Shown here piece by piece: positions 1-6,426 of a stretch of DNA of 64,000 nucleotides. Every line of letters starts with the position of its first letter. Position 1 is the stretch's first letter. Source of the DNA: Candidatus Helarchaeota archaeon. GTDB taxonomy: Archaea > Asgardarchaeota > Lokiarchaeia > Helarchaeales > RDOG01. The notes under the pieces were generated by a model. The model was not told where the DNA came from and did not search any database. It was given only the letters and a program-made list of their open reading frames with translations. Made by a program: the position numbers and the translations under genes. The stretch is taken from assembly GCA_019058315.1 (NCBI GenBank), contig JAHPZH010000008.1:64001-128000 (forward strand), read 5' to 3'.

Positions 1-279
1 CCCAAAACTCCTAAATTTCCCGACTTTCCTAGGGGGTTATATAATATTATAGGAAATCCATATGAAGCCCTAAATACTTTGAGAGAATGGGATATAGTAC
101 ATCCACCAGCATGGGTAGAATTAGTGAGGGAGCTTGAACAAGTAGTTTATAAATCAGAAACTCATTTAATAGAACCTATAATCGAAGAACCGTATGAACT
201 TGGGAAGAAAGGTAAAGGAAAAGGGGAAGCAACTGGTAAAACCAAGGATGGTCAGAAAAAAACTAGTAGTTATAAATAA
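1..279 (+). CDS. 3' part of a hypothetical protein running in from the window edge
   Basis: Frame 1 is open from base 1 (PKTPKFPDFPRGLYNIIGNPYEALNTLREWDIVHPPAW...) to TAA 277-279, so the TTG at 79 is probably internal. Confidence 0.75.
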   Translation, partial: PKTPKFPDFPRGLYNIIGNPYEALNTLREWDIVHPPAWVELVRELEQVVYKSETHLIEPIIEEPYELGKKGKGKGEATGKTKDGQKKTSSYK

Positions 280-286
280 AATTATT
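250..286 (+). repeat. 37-bp perfect direct repeat, left copy (attL/target-duplication-like)
   Basis: GGTCAGAAAAAAACTAGTAGTTATAAATAAAATTATT, identical to 3623-3659; covers the last codons and stop of the upstream gene. Confidence 0.95.
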
Positions 287-698
287 AAAAAAAACAGGTG
301 TTCTATAATTATTTGAAAGATAAATCCAATAGGATTTTTTTCAGATGATTGGTATGAGACTTTAAGAAAAATTTTGGACTTTTTGAAAATTAAAATAAGT
401 AATTTAAATGATTCGATAGATTAAAATGTCCAATATTTTTTAAATGTTCAAAATCCCCACTTATATTTTATCAGAATCGAGATATTACATGAAAAAAATA
501 ATTCAAAATAGTACAATATTTATATATTAGATGTATCTTCTTTAATTATATACAAGATTTCTGGGGCGATATTGCAATTTTTAAAGATACGACATATATT
601 ATCTAGGAAATTTTTCTAAAAAATAAAAAAGAATAACAGAATAATAAGTTAACCTACCCAAGATCGGAATACTTCACTTAAAGGATGGAATGTAATCA

Positions 699-1841
699 AT
701 GGAGAATGATTTTAGAAAATCTTTTGAGAATTTGACTTGGAAAAGAAGAATAGCTAGATTTTATTTAGGATATATTGTTTTTTACAACCTAGTCACAAGA
801 ATTTTATTTTTAATTTTAAGAATACGAATAAATAACTTTACCTATTGGGCAGACGAAGTTATTTTTCCTGCTTTTAATTCTCTTTTTTGCCTTGTGACAA
901 TATTTTTTATTGATGAATTTTATAAAAAGGTCGAATTATTAAAAATTTATACAAATATAAAAAAATATCTTTGTAATATATTTCCTGATAAATATGTTTT
1001 TATAACAATAACAATACTGGGGATTATTTTAAATATAGAGGGATATTGGACGAATAGATTTGCAAATTTAAAATATTTCGAATTATTTGGAGATTTCTCT
1101 GTTACATTATTTCACCTAGAAATTTGGCAAGACCTCCTATTACTACCTTTTGGATTTAGTACTTTTTGGGCAATTGTAACGGCTCCATATAAAATGAAAA
1201 AAAGACAACATAAATTTATAAAGGAAAAAGTTCTACATGAATTTCAAAAATTATCATTATTAAATATTCAAGTTTATCTGATTTTTACTTTGGTATATGT
1301 TATTTTCATGTTACTTGGCTTAACTTCAGAGGGTTTTTTGGTCTCAATTTCTTATCTTATCTCTTTTATTATTGGAATTGTTTTTTTTATATATTTAATA
1401 ATAAACTCGTTAAAAATCATTAGTTTCAAAAAACCTCTGAATGGAATAAATGAAAGTTTAATCAAAGAAATATATGATATGTGTAATTCTTTTAGAAATT
1501 GGGAAGATATTTTAAACCTTTTATGTTCATCTAGTGGTTTATTTGTTCAACATTTTAGAAATATTTTAGATGTTTTTTCAAATTCTGAAAATTTAAAACA
1601 ATATTTTAATAAAAATAAAAGCAAGAACTATAATAAAATTAAAATTTTATTATATATTTTTGCATTTCATCAATGGAAAAGCAAAAACTGTACAGCACAG
1701 AATATTAAAGATGATTTGAAGATCCCAAAGGCTACTATTTATAGAAATGTTAACAAATTAGAAGAAGAGAGAATAATTAAAAAAGAAAAAAAGGGTAACA
1801 AAAGAGAAGAACTGCTCCAACCGTTAAAAATTCCAACTTGA
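699..1841 (+). CDS. multi-pass membrane protein with C-terminal winged helix-turn-helix (putative membrane-anchored regulator)
   Basis: About 6 hydrophobic segments, then TAQNIKDDLKIPKATIYRNVNKLEEERIIKK, a typical wHTH signature. Confidence 0.7.
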   Translation: MENDFRKSFENLTWKRRIARFYLGYIVFYNLVTRILFLILRIRINNFTYWADEVIFPAFNSLFCLVTIFFIDEFYKKVELLKIYTNIKKYLCNIFPDKYVFITITILGIILNIEGYWTNRFANLKYFELFGDFSVTLFHLEIWQDLLLLPFGFSTFWAIVTAPYKMKKRQHKFIKEKVLHEFQKLSLLNIQVYLIFTLVYVIFMLLGLTSEGFLVSISYLISFIIGIVFFIYLIINSLKIISFKKPLNGINESLIKEIYDMCNSFRNWEDILNLLCSSSGLFVQHFRNILDVFSNSENLKQYFNKNKSKNYNKIKILLYIFAFHQWKSKNCTAQNIKDDLKIPKATIYRNVNKLEEERIIKKEKKGNKREELLQPLKIPT

Positions 1842-1860
1842 GTGTAATAATACATGAAAA

Positions 1861-1980
1861 TTAAGATTCTGTTATAGAATGAACCTCGAACCTAACATCT
1901 TGATTTAGCGCTCCTTTTTGATTTGGATTAATTTTAAGTTTTTGGAAAATCTCTCTTGCTCCTATTTCCATGGAAATCAT
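1861..1980 (-). CDS. possible small ORF or gene remnant (39 aa, MISMEIGAREIFQKLKINPNQKG...)
   Basis: Open frame co-oriented with the upstream operon, with GGAG just before the start; no recognisable domain. Confidence 0.25.
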   Translation of the reverse strand: MISMEIGAREIFQKLKINPNQKGALNQDVRFEVHSITES

Positions 1981-2060
1981 CTCTCCAAATTATGTTTTGA
2001 TGTAACTTATAAAATCTATGATTTTTTAATAAACACAAGGGCTAAAAATATTTTTTTAAT

Positions 2061-2333
2061 TTATCTTGCTATAGAGATTATTATCGTAAAAACGATAATT
2101 ATACAAATAATAATAAAACATATACCACCTGTTGTCAAAGAATTCTTCTTTTTTGAACTGGGGAAATACTCTGATGCTTGGATCCGTTCTGGTTCTTGAT
2201 TGGTAAGTTGTTGTTTTATATCTGGTAATGGTGAACTATCAGTAACTTTAGTAAATACAAATCCACAATGAATACAAATATTACTTTCATATGGAATTAT
2301 TCTATTGCATTTTGGACATTTTTTACCTTCCAT
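2061..2333 (-). CDS. zinc-ribbon protein with C-terminal transmembrane anchor
   Basis: CPKC-x10-CIHCG at the N-terminus; hydrophobic C-terminal helix. Confidence 0.75.
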   Translation of the reverse strand: MEGKKCPKCNRIIPYESNICIHCGFVFTKVTDSSPLPDIKQQLTNQEPERIQASEYFPSSKKKNSLTTGGICFIIICIIIVFTIIISIAR

Positions 2334-2382
2334 TTACATCGAACCTGTTTCAATTTTGAAATTAACAATATTTATGAAAAAA

Positions 2383-2997
2383 TTAAGTTACATAGCCAAT
2401 TTTTAAGACAATAGGGAGGTCCGTTTGAATAGAATTTTCCCGTAAATTTTGTATTAGATCTTTTATTTCTGTTTTTCCTTTTCTTAAATTTGTAATCGAC
2501 ACTGGAAGCATCGGTTCAAATTTAGATTTTTTAATAAAGTTGTTAATACGGTATTTACCTTCTAAAAGCCAATAATAGGTTCCTTTGGTTTTCTTTTCAT
2601 AATAATAGCCAGGATCTAGAAAATCCCCAGTTAATGGGATATAAAATACAACAGAGCCATCCATATATTTACTTTCTTGAGCGTATACTCCTGGCTTTTT
2701 TATATTTTTTTTGGGTTTTTTAAGATATTCTGTTATTTTACAAATGGGTATTTCTACATAAATTTCTCCGCGTCCTAGTTCTTTTTTGTGAACAGTTATA
2801 CCATATATTTTACGACTTCTTTCAGAATAATACTGTGATAAAAATACGATTCTATTTTTTGTTATTGATATGTCGCCAGGAGCATCAGGTGGAAAATAAC
2901 ATCTTGCTCCAATGTTTATCATCATTCCAACATTATTTATCTTCTTAATAATTTCTTCCTCATCCGTTTCCATCACTTTCATAGGAAATATATACAA
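2383..2997 (-). CDS. hypothetical protein, possible PH/GRAM-like fold
   Basis: GDISITKNRIVF...VEIPICKI resembles the G-x-L-x-(I/L)-T-x-x-R-(I/L)-x-F pattern of PH-like domains. True start may be a later Met. Confidence 0.55.
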   Translation of the reverse strand: MYIFPMKVMETDEEEIIKKINNVGMMINIGARCYFPPDAPGDISITKNRIVFLSQYYSERSRKIYGITVHKKELGRGEIYVEIPICKITEYLKKPKKNIKKPGVYAQESKYMDGSVVFYIPLTGDFLDPGYYYEKKTKGTYYWLLEGKYRINNFIKKSKFEPMLPVSITNLRKGKTEIKDLIQNLRENSIQTDLPIVLKIGYVT

Positions 2998-3033
2998 TTA
3001 TAAATTTTTTTACTCAAAATATTCTATATTTCA

Positions 3034-3438
3034 CTAATTACTGCTTAATATTTTTGCTATTGCACAAATGGCAATTACTACACCTAATAAAATAAATACC
3101 CAACTATAATCAGGAGAACTTGAACCATCCGAGTCACTATCTTCCGCTGCTGACAGAAGTACCATTTCGGAAGTAAATAACTTCGTTCCACTGAAAAAAA
3201 ATGTATTTACATAATTGTTTATTTGAAATTGATTAATGCATGTAGTTAAAGAGTTTCTGTATAAGGAATCTATATTAATAATTTTTTTCATCTCAATTCT
3301 GTTCTCATCAAGAAAATAATAATTATTTCTGTCATTGAAGGGGCGTACAAATGTTTTAATGTTTTGAATGGGTAGAATTAAGATGATGGAAACAAAAATA
3401 GTAGCAATAATGATTAAAAATAATTTTTTTCCTCTCAA
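3034..3438 (-). CDS. membrane protein with N-terminal signal/TM, Ser/Asp linker and C-terminal TM
   Basis: Basic then hydrophobic N-terminus; DSDSDGSSSPD linker; C-terminal hydrophobic helix; GGTGA SD before the TTG. Confidence 0.6.
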   Translation of the reverse strand: MRGKKLFLIIIATIFVSIILILPIQNIKTFVRPFNDRNNYYFLDENRIEMKKIINIDSLYRNSLTTCINQFQINNYVNTFFFSGTKLFTSEMVLLSAAEDSDSDGSSSPDYSWVFILLGVVIAICAIAKILSSN

Positions 3439-3516
3439 AATTTCACCATTCTTATTTATTACTATGTATTAAAACTGGATATGTGTAGATGTCATTTATT
3501 TTTAAAAATTACTTTT

Positions 3517-3538
3517 TTTAGTCTCAAGTGAGACTAAA
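3517..3538. promoter_or_regulatory. palindromic operator candidate TTTAGTCTCA-AG-TGAGACTAAA
   Basis: Perfect 10-bp inverted repeat with 2-bp spacer, about 80 bp upstream of the island's minus-strand operon. Confidence 0.6.
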
Positions 3539-3622
3539 TTGATGAGATTTTTTAATGAAATAGTCAAGATATATTGTTATCTTTGAAAAATAATGCATTT
3601 TAAAACTTGAAAACAATTTGAA

Positions 3623-3659
3623 GGTCAGAAAAAAACTAGTAGTTATAAATAAAATTATT
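3623..3659 (+). repeat. 37-bp perfect direct repeat, right copy (attR-like)
   Basis: Identical to 250-286; contains the stop codon (TTA 3655-3657) of the convergent gene 3655-4101. Confidence 0.95.
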
Positions 3660-4101
3660 TTAAAAGATATTTCTGACCAATATAAATAAATATTACTGCT
3701 CCAAGTATCATAAGAGTTGTACATATAATAAGAACTAATTCTTGAGTCGTAATACCCAAAACTGCATATAATGCAAATGCTGCTATAATTCCGATTGAAA
3801 GCATAAGGAAAAGAAAAAATGAATATATCATCAATCTAACATTCTCTTTGTTATTCATGTACCATCTTTTAATTCTATTTTCTTCATATGCAAGTTTTTC
3901 CTTTGCTTCCCTTTCCTTCAGCCTTTCTTTCATTTCTTTTTCTAATTCTTCCTCGATTACTATTCCTTCCTCTCTGGTAGACACTTTATTTTCTTCTTCA
4001 ACCTCATTATCTTTGATTTCGTCTATCTCTTCTTCTATTTCTTCCTCTTCTATCTCTTCTTCTGACTCTTCAATATTTTCAATTTTTTTCCGCTTACTCA
4101 T
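3655..4101 (-). CDS. membrane protein with very acidic N-terminal region and two C-terminal TM helices
   Basis: Glu-rich N-terminus followed by two hydrophobic helices; GGTG upstream. Confidence 0.8.
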   Translation of the reverse strand: MSKRKKIENIEESEEEIEEEEIEEEIDEIKDNEVEEENKVSTREEGIVIEEELEKEMKERLKEREAKEKLAYEENRIKRWYMNNKENVRLMIYSFFLFLMLSIGIIAAFALYAVLGITTQELVLIICTTLMILGAVIFIYIGQKYLLK

Positions 4102-4128
4102 TTCCTAATACACCATATCAACCAGCAG

Positions 4129-6426
4129 TTACATCCATGGTTTTTGAATAATTGAAAAATTTGAACCAATACTTACTCTAATTTTATCCTTTTTTTCTCC
4201 ATAGTAACCAAATTTCATTTGATACTGCAGATCTGGAATTTTTTTATTTTGTAGTATTAATAATATTGGTTTTACTATAAACTTACTATATGCTTTTACT
4301 TGAAAATTTTCTTGAAATTCTTGAAAACTCTCAGTTTCATTTAATAATATCTTTTTTGGTTCTATAGTTTCAACATCTAATTGTTTATTTTGTAAAAAAT
4401 TCTTAAAATTATTATTTAAAAATACAGGAAATGTATTCCTTAATTCAATACTTTGCTGAAAAATTTCACCAAATAATTTCAATAAGGCTTTTTGAATCTC
4501 ATCTGTTTCTAATTCTGTACTTATTTCTAAATTTTCTAGAAATATATTTGGTTCCAGCTGTTTTTGACCTTGAGATTTGATAAAATTAATCAGATTATTT
4601 ACTTGATCAAATAATAGTAATTGTTTATCAACATTCGCTTGTCTAAAGTCGTCAAACCAATTTAACAATACGTCATTCCAATTTAACTTCATTGCACTTA
4701 ATCTTCTATCAAGAAATTTAAGATATTCCTCTGAGAAAGAATCTGGTTCTTCAGAAAGCTTATCCTCATTTTCAAATAAAAATGTATTAAAAACATTATA
4801 ACGAAGCAAATATTCTGTTAAGAATAAAACTTCCCTAGGATAACTTCTTAAATTATTAAAAGTCTTGGAAAAAAGCTTTTTATTTTCTTCAGAATCCACA
4901 CGGGGTAAGATAAAATTCCCGCTGAATTCAATCAGATCCTCTAAAGTTAAATTTTGTTCTTCTACAAAATTTTCCATATAAATCATTAATTCTTTAGGAA
5001 GTTGCTCCTCAATCTTATCCTGATCAAATTGTACTTCTGCTTCTTCTAAGTACTTCTTATAGATCTCATTTATTGCGTAACTCTCGAATTTCTTTAGGTA
5101 TGTATCTGCGATTGCTTTAATTGTTTCTTCTTGATCTTTTAGAACATCATCTTTGAATTTCCTTATATATGATCTTAGAAGTTCGACTTCACAGTTTTTA
5201 GATAGAAAAATAGGAAGTCCCCTTATCAAATTTGAAATTGAATGATTAGCATATTCAATAAAGAAATTTAGTTCAGGTTTGAATTGCCAAGCAACAATCT
5301 CTTCTGTACCAAATTCTTCTCGTAGGGGACTAAAAAATTCTTCAAATATTTTTATTAGTAGAGATTTTTGTTGTCCTAGAGATTTTTCGAGAACCCAATT
5401 TTTAAATTTATTAACATGTTCATTAAAATCAGCTTTTATACCGCTTTTAAAATATTCTTCAGCAGAAGTTTGAAAACTTTGAAGAGCATCACGATATACT
5501 TCGGCCTCTTCGTTCAATACAGGAATTAAAAAATCAAATCTTTTTTTGGCTTCATATCTTCCTATCATATCAATAAAATAATCTAAAAAAAAGGATAAGA
5601 ATCTAGATTGAGTCATATTGCCTGATAATTCATTTAAAGGCAGAAAAGCCTCTCTTGAAAATGAAAATGTATTTTGAGTAATTCTTTTACCAGTAATTGG
5701 AGATAAAGCATGTTTTAGATATTGAACCGATGCTCTTTGTTCAGTTTTTTCTTTTAAACGGGACAATTTAATATTTTCTAATTTAATTGCGGGAGGTAGG
5801 GATACATAATTCGTATTTTGATTACCCGTAATTATATTGTCAGCATCGACATCAACTTGATCAAGATTTTGGCTCTTTTTATGTTCTGCTTCCTTATATT
5901 TTCTTTGCCATCTTTTTTCTATAAAAATTCCAAACATTTTTTCTGCAGATCTGGAACTAAATCTTTCAAGGATTTGCGTTCGAGCTTTGCCATCAATCTC
6001 TGGTCTGGTAATTTCTTCTTCTATTTGATAAATATTTTCACAAACTGAATTTAGCTCATCTTTAGCTTTATAGACGTCGATTAATCCAGTTTCATACTCA
6101 AATGCTAAGATAAAATCTGATCTTGTTTTTCGTGAACCTGTAATTAATAATATACCTTTTGGAAGTAGTTTATCTTCCTTTCCTACATATTCTAAAAGAA
6201 ATTCAGCCGAAAATAATGTTGACCCAGCATAATCTTCTAGAAAAGAATTAAAAGCGGACAAATATTTGGAAGCATTATTAATTAATTCTTTTACTTTCGC
6301 ACTATGTACTCTTCCTGGGCTTACAATACCACCATAAGGTGCACCATTTTCATCTATATAGCTAAAAATAGTAGCGTAGATTCTTGAAAGTTCATCTCCC
6401 GTAAAAACAAGATCTGTTATCTTCAA
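4129..6426 (-). CDS. large helical hypothetical protein (765 aa)
   Basis: Long ORF, GGAGG SD before the TTG; no recognisable motif. Confidence 0.85.
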   Translation of the reverse strand: MKITDLVFTGDELSRIYATIFSYIDENGAPYGGIVSPGRVHSAKVKELINNASKYLSAFNSFLEDYAGSTLFSAEFLLEYVGKEDKLLPKGILLITGSRKTRSDFILAFEYETGLIDVYKAKDELNSVCENIYQIEEEITRPEIDGKARTQILERFSSRSAEKMFGIFIEKRWQRKYKEAEHKKSQNLDQVDVDADNIITGNQNTNYVSLPPAIKLENIKLSRLKEKTEQRASVQYLKHALSPITGKRITQNTFSFSREAFLPLNELSGNMTQSRFLSFFLDYFIDMIGRYEAKKRFDFLIPVLNEEAEVYRDALQSFQTSAEEYFKSGIKADFNEHVNKFKNWVLEKSLGQQKSLLIKIFEEFFSPLREEFGTEEIVAWQFKPELNFFIEYANHSISNLIRGLPIFLSKNCEVELLRSYIRKFKDDVLKDQEETIKAIADTYLKKFESYAINEIYKKYLEEAEVQFDQDKIEEQLPKELMIYMENFVEEQNLTLEDLIEFSGNFILPRVDSEENKKLFSKTFNNLRSYPREVLFLTEYLLRYNVFNTFLFENEDKLSEEPDSFSEEYLKFLDRRLSAMKLNWNDVLLNWFDDFRQANVDKQLLLFDQVNNLINFIKSQGQKQLEPNIFLENLEISTELETDEIQKALLKLFGEIFQQSIELRNTFPVFLNNNFKNFLQNKQLDVETIEPKKILLNETESFQEFQENFQVKAYSKFIVKPILLILQNKKIPDLQYQMKFGYYGEKKDKIRVSIGSNFSIIQKPWM

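Follow-up and report, generated by a model that had tools for sequence, protein, structure and literature searches.

A duplicated gene junction borders a four-gene cassette

The window analysed in this work is the whole 64,000-nucleotide (nt) stretch at positions 64,001 to 128,000 of contig JAHPZH010000008.1 (C9:64001-128000) in the genome of a Candidatus Helarchaeota archaeon (GCA_019058315.1, hereafter G000), which comprises 5.79 Mb in 12 contigs. Close to the start of the window, four genes lie between two conserved convergent genes coding for proteins of 312 and 148 amino acids (aa), and the whole block is bordered on each side by the same 37-bp sequence. This block is a genuine insertion at the abutting 3' ends of the two conserved convergent genes. 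In the reading that we favour, with about even confidence, the segment 287-3622 is a lineage-specific, non-autonomous accessory cassette of four genes, flanked by attachment (att) sites and inserted in Campbell style, the recombination being supplied in trans or by the host. The locus contains the following features, in window coordinates:

1..279, + strand: 3' part of the 312-aa gene (left flank), which starts 659 nt before the window; orthologues at syntenic loci, 94, 89, 87 and 48% identical
250..286, no strand: left copy of the 37-bp repeat (attL-like), holding the TAA (277-279) of the 312-aa gene with its nine preceding codons, a spacer and the end of the convergent gene
287..698, no strand: left non-coding arm of 412 bp, AT-rich, without tRNA or Rfam match
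699..1841, + strand: cargo gene p380, helical membrane domain with at least four transmembrane (TM) segments and a C-terminal MarR/TrmB-like winged helix
2061..2333, - strand: cargo gene p90, N-terminal zinc ribbon (UPF0547) and C-terminal TM helix
2383..2997, - strand: cargo gene p204 (called as 199 aa), an ORFan without family match
3034..3438, - strand: cargo gene p134, an ORFan with TM helices at the N- and C-terminus and an acidic Ser/Asp linker
3439..3622, no strand: right non-coding arm of 184 bp, containing a perfect palindrome
3623..3659, no strand: attR-like right copy of the 37-bp repeat, in which a pseudo 3' end of the 312-aa gene runs directly up to the 148-aa stop (3655-3657)
3655..4101, - strand: conserved gene for a 148-aa protein with two TM segments (right flank), weak VIT1/DUF2207_C matches
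4129..6426, - strand: conserved 765-aa gene, the synteny anchor used to order the relatives

The flanking genes belong to a conserved order (gatCAB – 298/301 aa – 312 aa → ← 148 aa ← 765 aa). The repeat, GGTCAGAAAAAAACTAGTAGTTATAAATAAAATTATT, occurs at 250-286 and 3623-3659 with 0 mismatches between its copies; no further match with three or fewer mismatches exists in the window (0 expected from 100 shuffles), and the whole 5.79-Mb genome holds these two copies only. When the flanks are included, the similarity extends to 46 nt at 93%. Isolated perfect direct repeats of at least 30 nt with a spacing of 0.5-80 kb number seven genome-wide. Alignment of the orthologous loci reveals where the repeated sequence comes from: the 312-aa gene contributes its native 3' end, TAA included, as the first 30 nt (ending in GGTCAGAAAAAAACTAGTAGTTATAAATAA), the peptide end KKTSSYK* being conserved in all relatives; a spacer of 2 nt follows, and the final 5 nt, TTATT, correspond to the native stop of the convergent 148-aa gene and two further bases. 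As the first 30 and the last 5 nt are native to the two genes, the 37-mer is the ancestral convergent-gene junction, now present twice, and thanks to this duplication both flanking genes keep intact ends. If one copy and the interior are removed from the sequence, the stops of the two genes come to lie 2 bp apart. An earlier note on this DNA had described the perfect repeat, the left copy providing the last codons and stop of the gene on the + strand, the right copy holding the stop of the gene on the - strand, and the tidy empty site left upon deletion. All four observations are reproduced here, and the search for further genomic copies of the 37-mer that it had proposed returned none beyond the two.

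Codons for G-Q-K occur near both C-terminal ends, seven codons before the stop in the 312-aa gene and five in the 148-aa gene, so that GGTCAGAAA at the start of the repeat (250-258, 3623-3631) has an inverted partner, TTTCTGACC, at 3670-3678, 10 nt past the repeat. Conserved in the relative locus L023 and absent from L025 and L027, this inverted pair is probably incidental.

The earlier note had also perceived in the repeat a loose resemblance to the arm of a dif site, which would imply integration by the Xer recombinase of the host, as in integrative mobile elements exploiting Xer (IMEX). All that speaks for it is a small dyad (AACTA-G-TAGTT) followed by an AT-rich tail. The defining structure of such sites is absent, since the 37-mer has no inverted arms in an 11-6-11 arrangement (the best arms match at 6/9 positions), and the dyad is broken in relatives at the same site (AACCAGTAGTT in L025, AACAAGTAGTT in L027). 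Moreover, the repeat sits on the coding end of a gene, and elsewhere in the genome a number of unrelated sequences act as repeats. We therefore abandon the resemblance and consider Xer integration hardly credible.

Gene content of the cassette

The cargo is composed of genes with few or no relatives. The family of p380 is rare and patchy: an exhaustive HMMER search of 1.84 billion representatives retrieved seven relatives with 31-40% identity. One of 40 related genomes, from another Lokiarchaeial genus, has a homologue, located between a padR-like gene and purL; in a congener of that genome these two genes are ~1 kb apart and no p380 homologue is present. A word-indexed search with p380 returned nothing and the Atlas low scores only. 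In a Foldseek search of the PDB with a p380 model of predicted local distance difference test (pLDDT) 79, only the winged helix was matched. A 51-aa 'cluster mate' of p380 (L035) turned out to be unrelated DNA. For p204, we retrieved no relative but itself among 5.8 billion clusters and no Atlas match, and its single-sequence AlphaFold2 model (pLDDT 30) was unusable. Paralogues of the four cargo genes were absent from the rest of the genome.

As stated in the earlier note, no integrase or transposase is encoded inside the cassette: comparison of the cargo open reading frames (ORFs) with Pfam, PHROGs and PADLOC detected no recombinase, transposase or Cas1. Families involved in replication, capsid formation or defence had no match either, those in PADLOC being limited to the winged helix-turn-helix (wHTH). 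The region 1-4300 of the window has no tRNA or Rfam family, and terminal inverted repeats are missing at the cassette ends. In the right arm, upstream of p134, TTTAGTCTCA-AG-TGAGACTAAA forms a perfect 10+2+10 (22-bp) palindrome at 3517-3538, a possible operator for the wHTH protein of the cassette.

The same spot in related genomes

The earlier note had suggested looking in related Asgard genomes for the empty site or alternative cargo, and both are present among the relatives. The names borne by homologues of the genes here, Helarchaeota and Promethearchaeota, agree with an Asgard host. The spot between the 312-aa and 148-aa genes is occupied as follows:

L027, L028, L029 (three Joint Genome Institute (JGI) contigs): spot empty, stops 10 bp apart
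L023, L024 and L025, L026 (two closer relatives): one 143-aa gene
sister genus G001 (L004 1893-2183, - strand): gene 3 nt downstream of the 312-aa homologue, coding for a beta-grasp-like, MoaD/ThiS/ubiquitin-like protein of 96 aa with VAGG at its C-terminus
G000 (the studied genome): the 3.3-kb four-gene cassette

Identity of the 765-aa protein to that of G000 is 89% in L023, 85% in L025, 70% in L027 and 34% in G001. The resulting ordering, ((G000, L023), L025), L027, implies turnover of the cargo at the spot, and the distribution of the 143-aa gene along it makes the presence of this gene in the ancestor of G000 probable. Gene order across these genomes identifies the spot as a reused insertion hotspot. 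A query of JGI metagenomes with the 312-aa protein found no related locus. The best match to the 96-aa protein of G001 in G000 is on another contig (C11:88732-89010, 37% identity). In a third relative (L036, GCA_048887025.1, contig JBHLKF010001219.1), the contig with the 312-aa gene breaks off 3-4 nt into the position that corresponds to the left boundary of the repeat, which may be due to chance or to a repeat-induced assembly break.

One of the closer relatives bears the trace of a similar duplication. In L025 and L026 the end of the 312-aa gene occurs a second time in decayed form (AGAAAAAAACAAGTAGCCATAAAT against AGAAAAAAACCAGTAGTTATAAAT), at a matching offset from where the 148-aa homologue stops. 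This copy has a Smith-Waterman score of 33, whereas the best of 500 shuffles gave 29 (0 of 500 reached it), and it retains an ACA codon found in the empty-site lineage. This decayed copy points to an older insertion of the same design at the same spot, and the perfect repeat of G000, set against it, to a more recent event or to homogenisation in G000. In L023, the closest relative, the gene end is not significantly duplicated; one further candidate for a decayed copy, in L023 and L025 (GTCAGGTGAAAAACTAG...), did not rise above shuffled sequences and was dropped.

These comparisons bear on a rival explanation in which the duplication of the junction is old, dating to the ancestor of the G000 lineage and its two closest relatives, and the cargo has since been swapped by homologous recombination with DNA of related strains, the identical copies having been imported together or gene-converted. 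The decayed copy of L025 at the same offset, the differing cargo between the same conserved flanks in five lineages, and the parsimony argument on the 765-aa ordering, which places the 143-aa gene in the ancestor of G000 too, would all agree with this. Nevertheless, L023 is without a recognisable second copy, the origin of the first duplication is left unaccounted for, and the 37/37 identity in G000, compared with ~30% decay in L025, requires a recent extra event anyway. We consider cargo swapping unlikely as the origin of the present cassette.

State of the cassette in the sample

The read-derived data are Logan contigs built with k=31, the source run (X1) being SRR14802573. In its contigs the cassette, at 19.7x, is about as deep as the left (18.4x) and right (19.0x) flanks; this equality indicates one cassette copy per genome. 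The Logan contigs break at the 37-mer, as any k=31 graph must. A run of another study contains pieces of the flanks (~98% identity) and of the cassette (~97-99.6%), so that the cassette is not private to one sample. An empty-site joint was listed in none of 4 runs. Run X3 covers the cassette in a patchy way and gives no evidence of absence. The unitig of the 37-mer has a depth of 52.9x as compared with the ~38x expected from two copies at 19x (L019 3250-3331, 6623-6659), and two contigs of ~6x in the source run diverge 8 and 45 nt into the cassette; together these could reflect a third context of the repeat or a variant cargo.

It could be argued that the locus is an assembly artefact, in which the assembler would have threaded a 3.4-kb circle, a free plasmid or virus with 37 bp in common with the chromosome, into the latter. 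A k=31 graph with contigs broken at the repeat cannot separate the two states, and the 52.9x of the 37-mer unitig, instead of ~38x, would fit as well. On the other side, the depth of the cassette is chromosomal (19.7x versus 18.4x and 19.0x), 37 bp should be spanned by ordinary reads and by the larger k of assemblers, the cargo is devoid of replication and capsid genes, and real inserts with duplicated ends exist at the same spot in relatives. An artefact thus appears highly improbable.

Other insertions in the same genome

An imperfect-repeat scan of the genome disclosed other repeat-flanked loci. At C5:209279-211834 (L038 ~3279-5834), a class I/II aminotransferase gene (394 aa) and ilvE (348 aa) converge with 2.5 kb between them; the pair abuts in L039 (GCA_013375355.1, gap of 13 bp) and L040 (GCA_048887025.1, gap of 4 bp). 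The insert consists of a 562-aa ORFan and ~460 bp of extra DNA, with a junction duplication of 62 nt at 89%, and in the middle copy both the spacer of the ancestral junction and an aminotransferase pseudo-end are preserved. This is a second locus of the same architecture. At C7:20895-30411 (L037 2895-12411), a TPR gene (+) and a 173-aa gene (-) have overlapping stops covered by a 39-nt repeat (92%), whose copies enclose 9.4 kb encoding two HEAT-repeat proteins of 2,543 and 557 aa and no integrase; the flank of this locus had no informative orthologue among the relatives compared. Another insert, specific to G000 and serving as a control, is located 5 kb upstream of the cassette locus (C9:56195-58905, window -7805 to -5095) and places three co-oriented genes (376, 245 and 158 aa) between NUDIX and gatB, a pair that abuts in L023, the closest relative.

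The variety of these repeats is relevant to another rival explanation, target-site duplication, whereby a linear cassette would have entered a staggered break with nicks 37 nt apart that was then filled in by a transposition-, Cas1- or end-joining-like process. In line with it, the repeat is exactly the lineage-specific junction of the host itself, the repeats elsewhere vary in sequence and length (37, 39, 62 nt) as target-derived copies would, and at the ilvE locus the duplications on both sides of the old junction run in opposite directions. The genome also has five Cas1-domain matches, all inside giant ORFs of 1,474-2,772 aa (C6:307676, C7:35450, C11:726840, C1:396293 and C11:840577) and none near the locus. 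The C7 ORF (L045:992-9292, - strand) encodes a protein of 2,766 aa with N-terminal DEAD/Helicase_C domains, Cas1 at residues 991-1281 and ~1,500 further residues without family match. The 173-aa gene of the C7 insertion locus is directly downstream of this helicase-Cas1 fusion gene, and a paralogue of it, 59% identical, is found ~3 kb from the Cas1 copy at C11:726840.

Against target-site duplication, we detected no terminal inverted repeats and no shared element ends, and neither a transposase nor Cas1 is present in or beside the cassette. Duplications generated by casposases are typically 14-15 bp long; we know of no characterised transposase or casposase that fits variable-length duplications of 37-62 nt, and the variable repeat length argues against a Cas1-type ruler. 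This explanation is, in our view, a rather doubtful one for the cassette.

Mode of insertion

In the Campbell-style insertion that we favour, a postulated circular DNA carrying the same 37 bp would recombine with the chromosomal junction through an equally postulated enzyme. The recombination function would act in trans, from a recombinase encoded elsewhere or since lost; alternatively, homologous recombination of the host might act on the short identity. Recombination between the two 37-bp copies would delete the cassette cleanly. The earlier note had proposed a non-autonomous element targeting the 3' end of a protein gene, and of this proposal the genuine insertion, the att-like repeat and the lack of an internal integrase stand, while the Xer/dif idea falls.

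Several observations weigh against insertion by a circle. The genome search for tyrosine recombinases suggested in the earlier note yielded two PF00589 genes genome-wide, both solitary, on other contigs and unlinked to the insertion site; SSV-type integrases (PF16795) and serine recombinases (PF00239) are absent from the genome. No circle bearing an attP, free element or autonomous relative was found, and the core of the repeat had 0 matches in viral, metagenome and genome contig collections. In k=31 contigs, an integrated cassette and an empty site plus an episomal circle look alike. The identity of the repeat is that of a poorly conserved, lineage-specific sequence, for which a target-derived duplication is simpler than a pre-existing attP. 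The other repeat-flanked inserts of the genome share with the cassette neither repeat sequence, nor length (37-62 nt), nor inner ends, so that no single site-specific enzyme is indicated. Finally, the insert between NUDIX and gatB has no significant flanking repeat, which makes repeats frequent but not universal at inserts.

Comparison with known systems

Among the closest parallels are cis-mobilizable elements (CIMEs) and other decayed integrative elements, with which the cassette shares attL/attR-type repeats at a gene 3' end, accessory cargo and the lack of integration and transfer genes of its own. The CIMEs of streptococci derive visibly from integrative and conjugative elements whose integrase recognises the site, and their excision and re-integration depend on functions in trans. 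For the cassette, by contrast, no integrase that recognises the site, no parent element and no circle are known, the repeat spans two convergent gene ends, and the host is an Asgard archaeon. Similarly, e14 and phage 21 insert at the 3' end of the E. coli icd gene, which stays intact through duplication of its end, the pseudo-end forming the second repeat. The cassette is likewise placed at the 3' end of a protein gene and leaves a pseudo-end as second repeat, but e14 has its own integrase and a diverged replacement end, whereas the cassette has identical copies and no integrase. As regards an autonomous integrative element, att-like repeats and empty sites in relatives are found and an internal integrase is not.

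The minimal mobile elements (MMEs) of Neisseria, which need no flanking direct repeats, move by transformation and flanking homology and are the model for the cargo swapping considered above. As in MMEs, the same conserved flanking pair encloses different whole-gene cassettes or none, without mobility genes; unlike in MMEs, the junction is duplicated at the cassette. Casposons depend on Cas1, target the 3' ends of genes or tRNAs, carry Cas1 and PolB as well as terminal inverted repeats, and produce duplications of 14-15 bp. The preference for a gene 3' end, the duplicated target and the Cas1-domain genes in the genome recall them, yet the cassette has no Cas1, PolB or terminal inverted repeats, nor a duplication of 14-15 bp. 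Insertion sequences and DNA transposons generate fixed duplications of 2-15 bp, to be compared with 37 bp here and 39-62 nt elsewhere in the genome. Integron cassettes, which are single promoterless ORFs in one orientation with attC hairpin sites and IntI close by, differ too, as the present one has four genes on both strands, its non-coding arms are long, and the contig is free of integrase genes.

Among Asgard archaea, the Atabeyarchaeia contain integrated elements of 1.3-40 kb with a short repeated att motif, including Yucahu-i and mini-Yucahu-i, the latter being a 2.6-kb element with no integrase among the genes listed (PMC11529989). Their motif is AT-rich and 11 bp long, circles and excision are seen in reads, and tyrosine integrases are mostly encoded (PMC11529989). 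Unlike in those elements, the repeat of the cassette is 37 bp of coding-gene ends, no circle was seen, and there is no sequence similarity.

By itself, the cassette is an ordinary kind of non-autonomous insertion. Its locus nonetheless offers a comparative case of gene gain in Asgard archaea without an element-borne recombinase, with one spot seen empty, filled with other cargo, scarred by an old event and freshly occupied. One might extend this to a general, hitherto undescribed route in Helarchaeales and other Lokiarchaeial genomes, in which cargo would enter where convergent 3' ends abut or overlap, and at the ends of tRNA or rRNA genes, with duplication of a junction of 37-62 nt, under a trans-acting catalyst not recognised as an integrase, such as the five giant helicase-Cas1 fusions; we regard this extension as very unlikely. 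If the pattern were general, it would bear on the acquisition of orphan and membrane genes by these large genomes. The genome of G000 is unusually large (5.8 Mb versus 3.5-4.7 Mb in relatives), and the pattern may bear on genome size, to which such a general route, if true, would contribute.

Further duplicated gene ends

Two other blocks were noticed in the genome. At C3:622670-627554 (L020 3670-8554), 47 nt from the 3' part of tRNA-Asn are perfectly repeated 4.8 kb from the intact tRNA, and the pair brackets one gene of 1,575 aa; a neighbouring giant gene has a similar 3' end. Considered as a twin case of the cassette, this locus is weakened, as it may represent a tandem duplication of paralogous giant genes; it may otherwise be an aloposon-like giant-gene element at a tRNA. 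At C11:12537-19698, the 5' start of a 134-aa gene is duplicated over 46 nt (93%), and five genes lie between the copies in a 7-kb block. One of them has a P-loop ATPase motif (GANGVGKST), and the block resembles an island inserted at a gene start.

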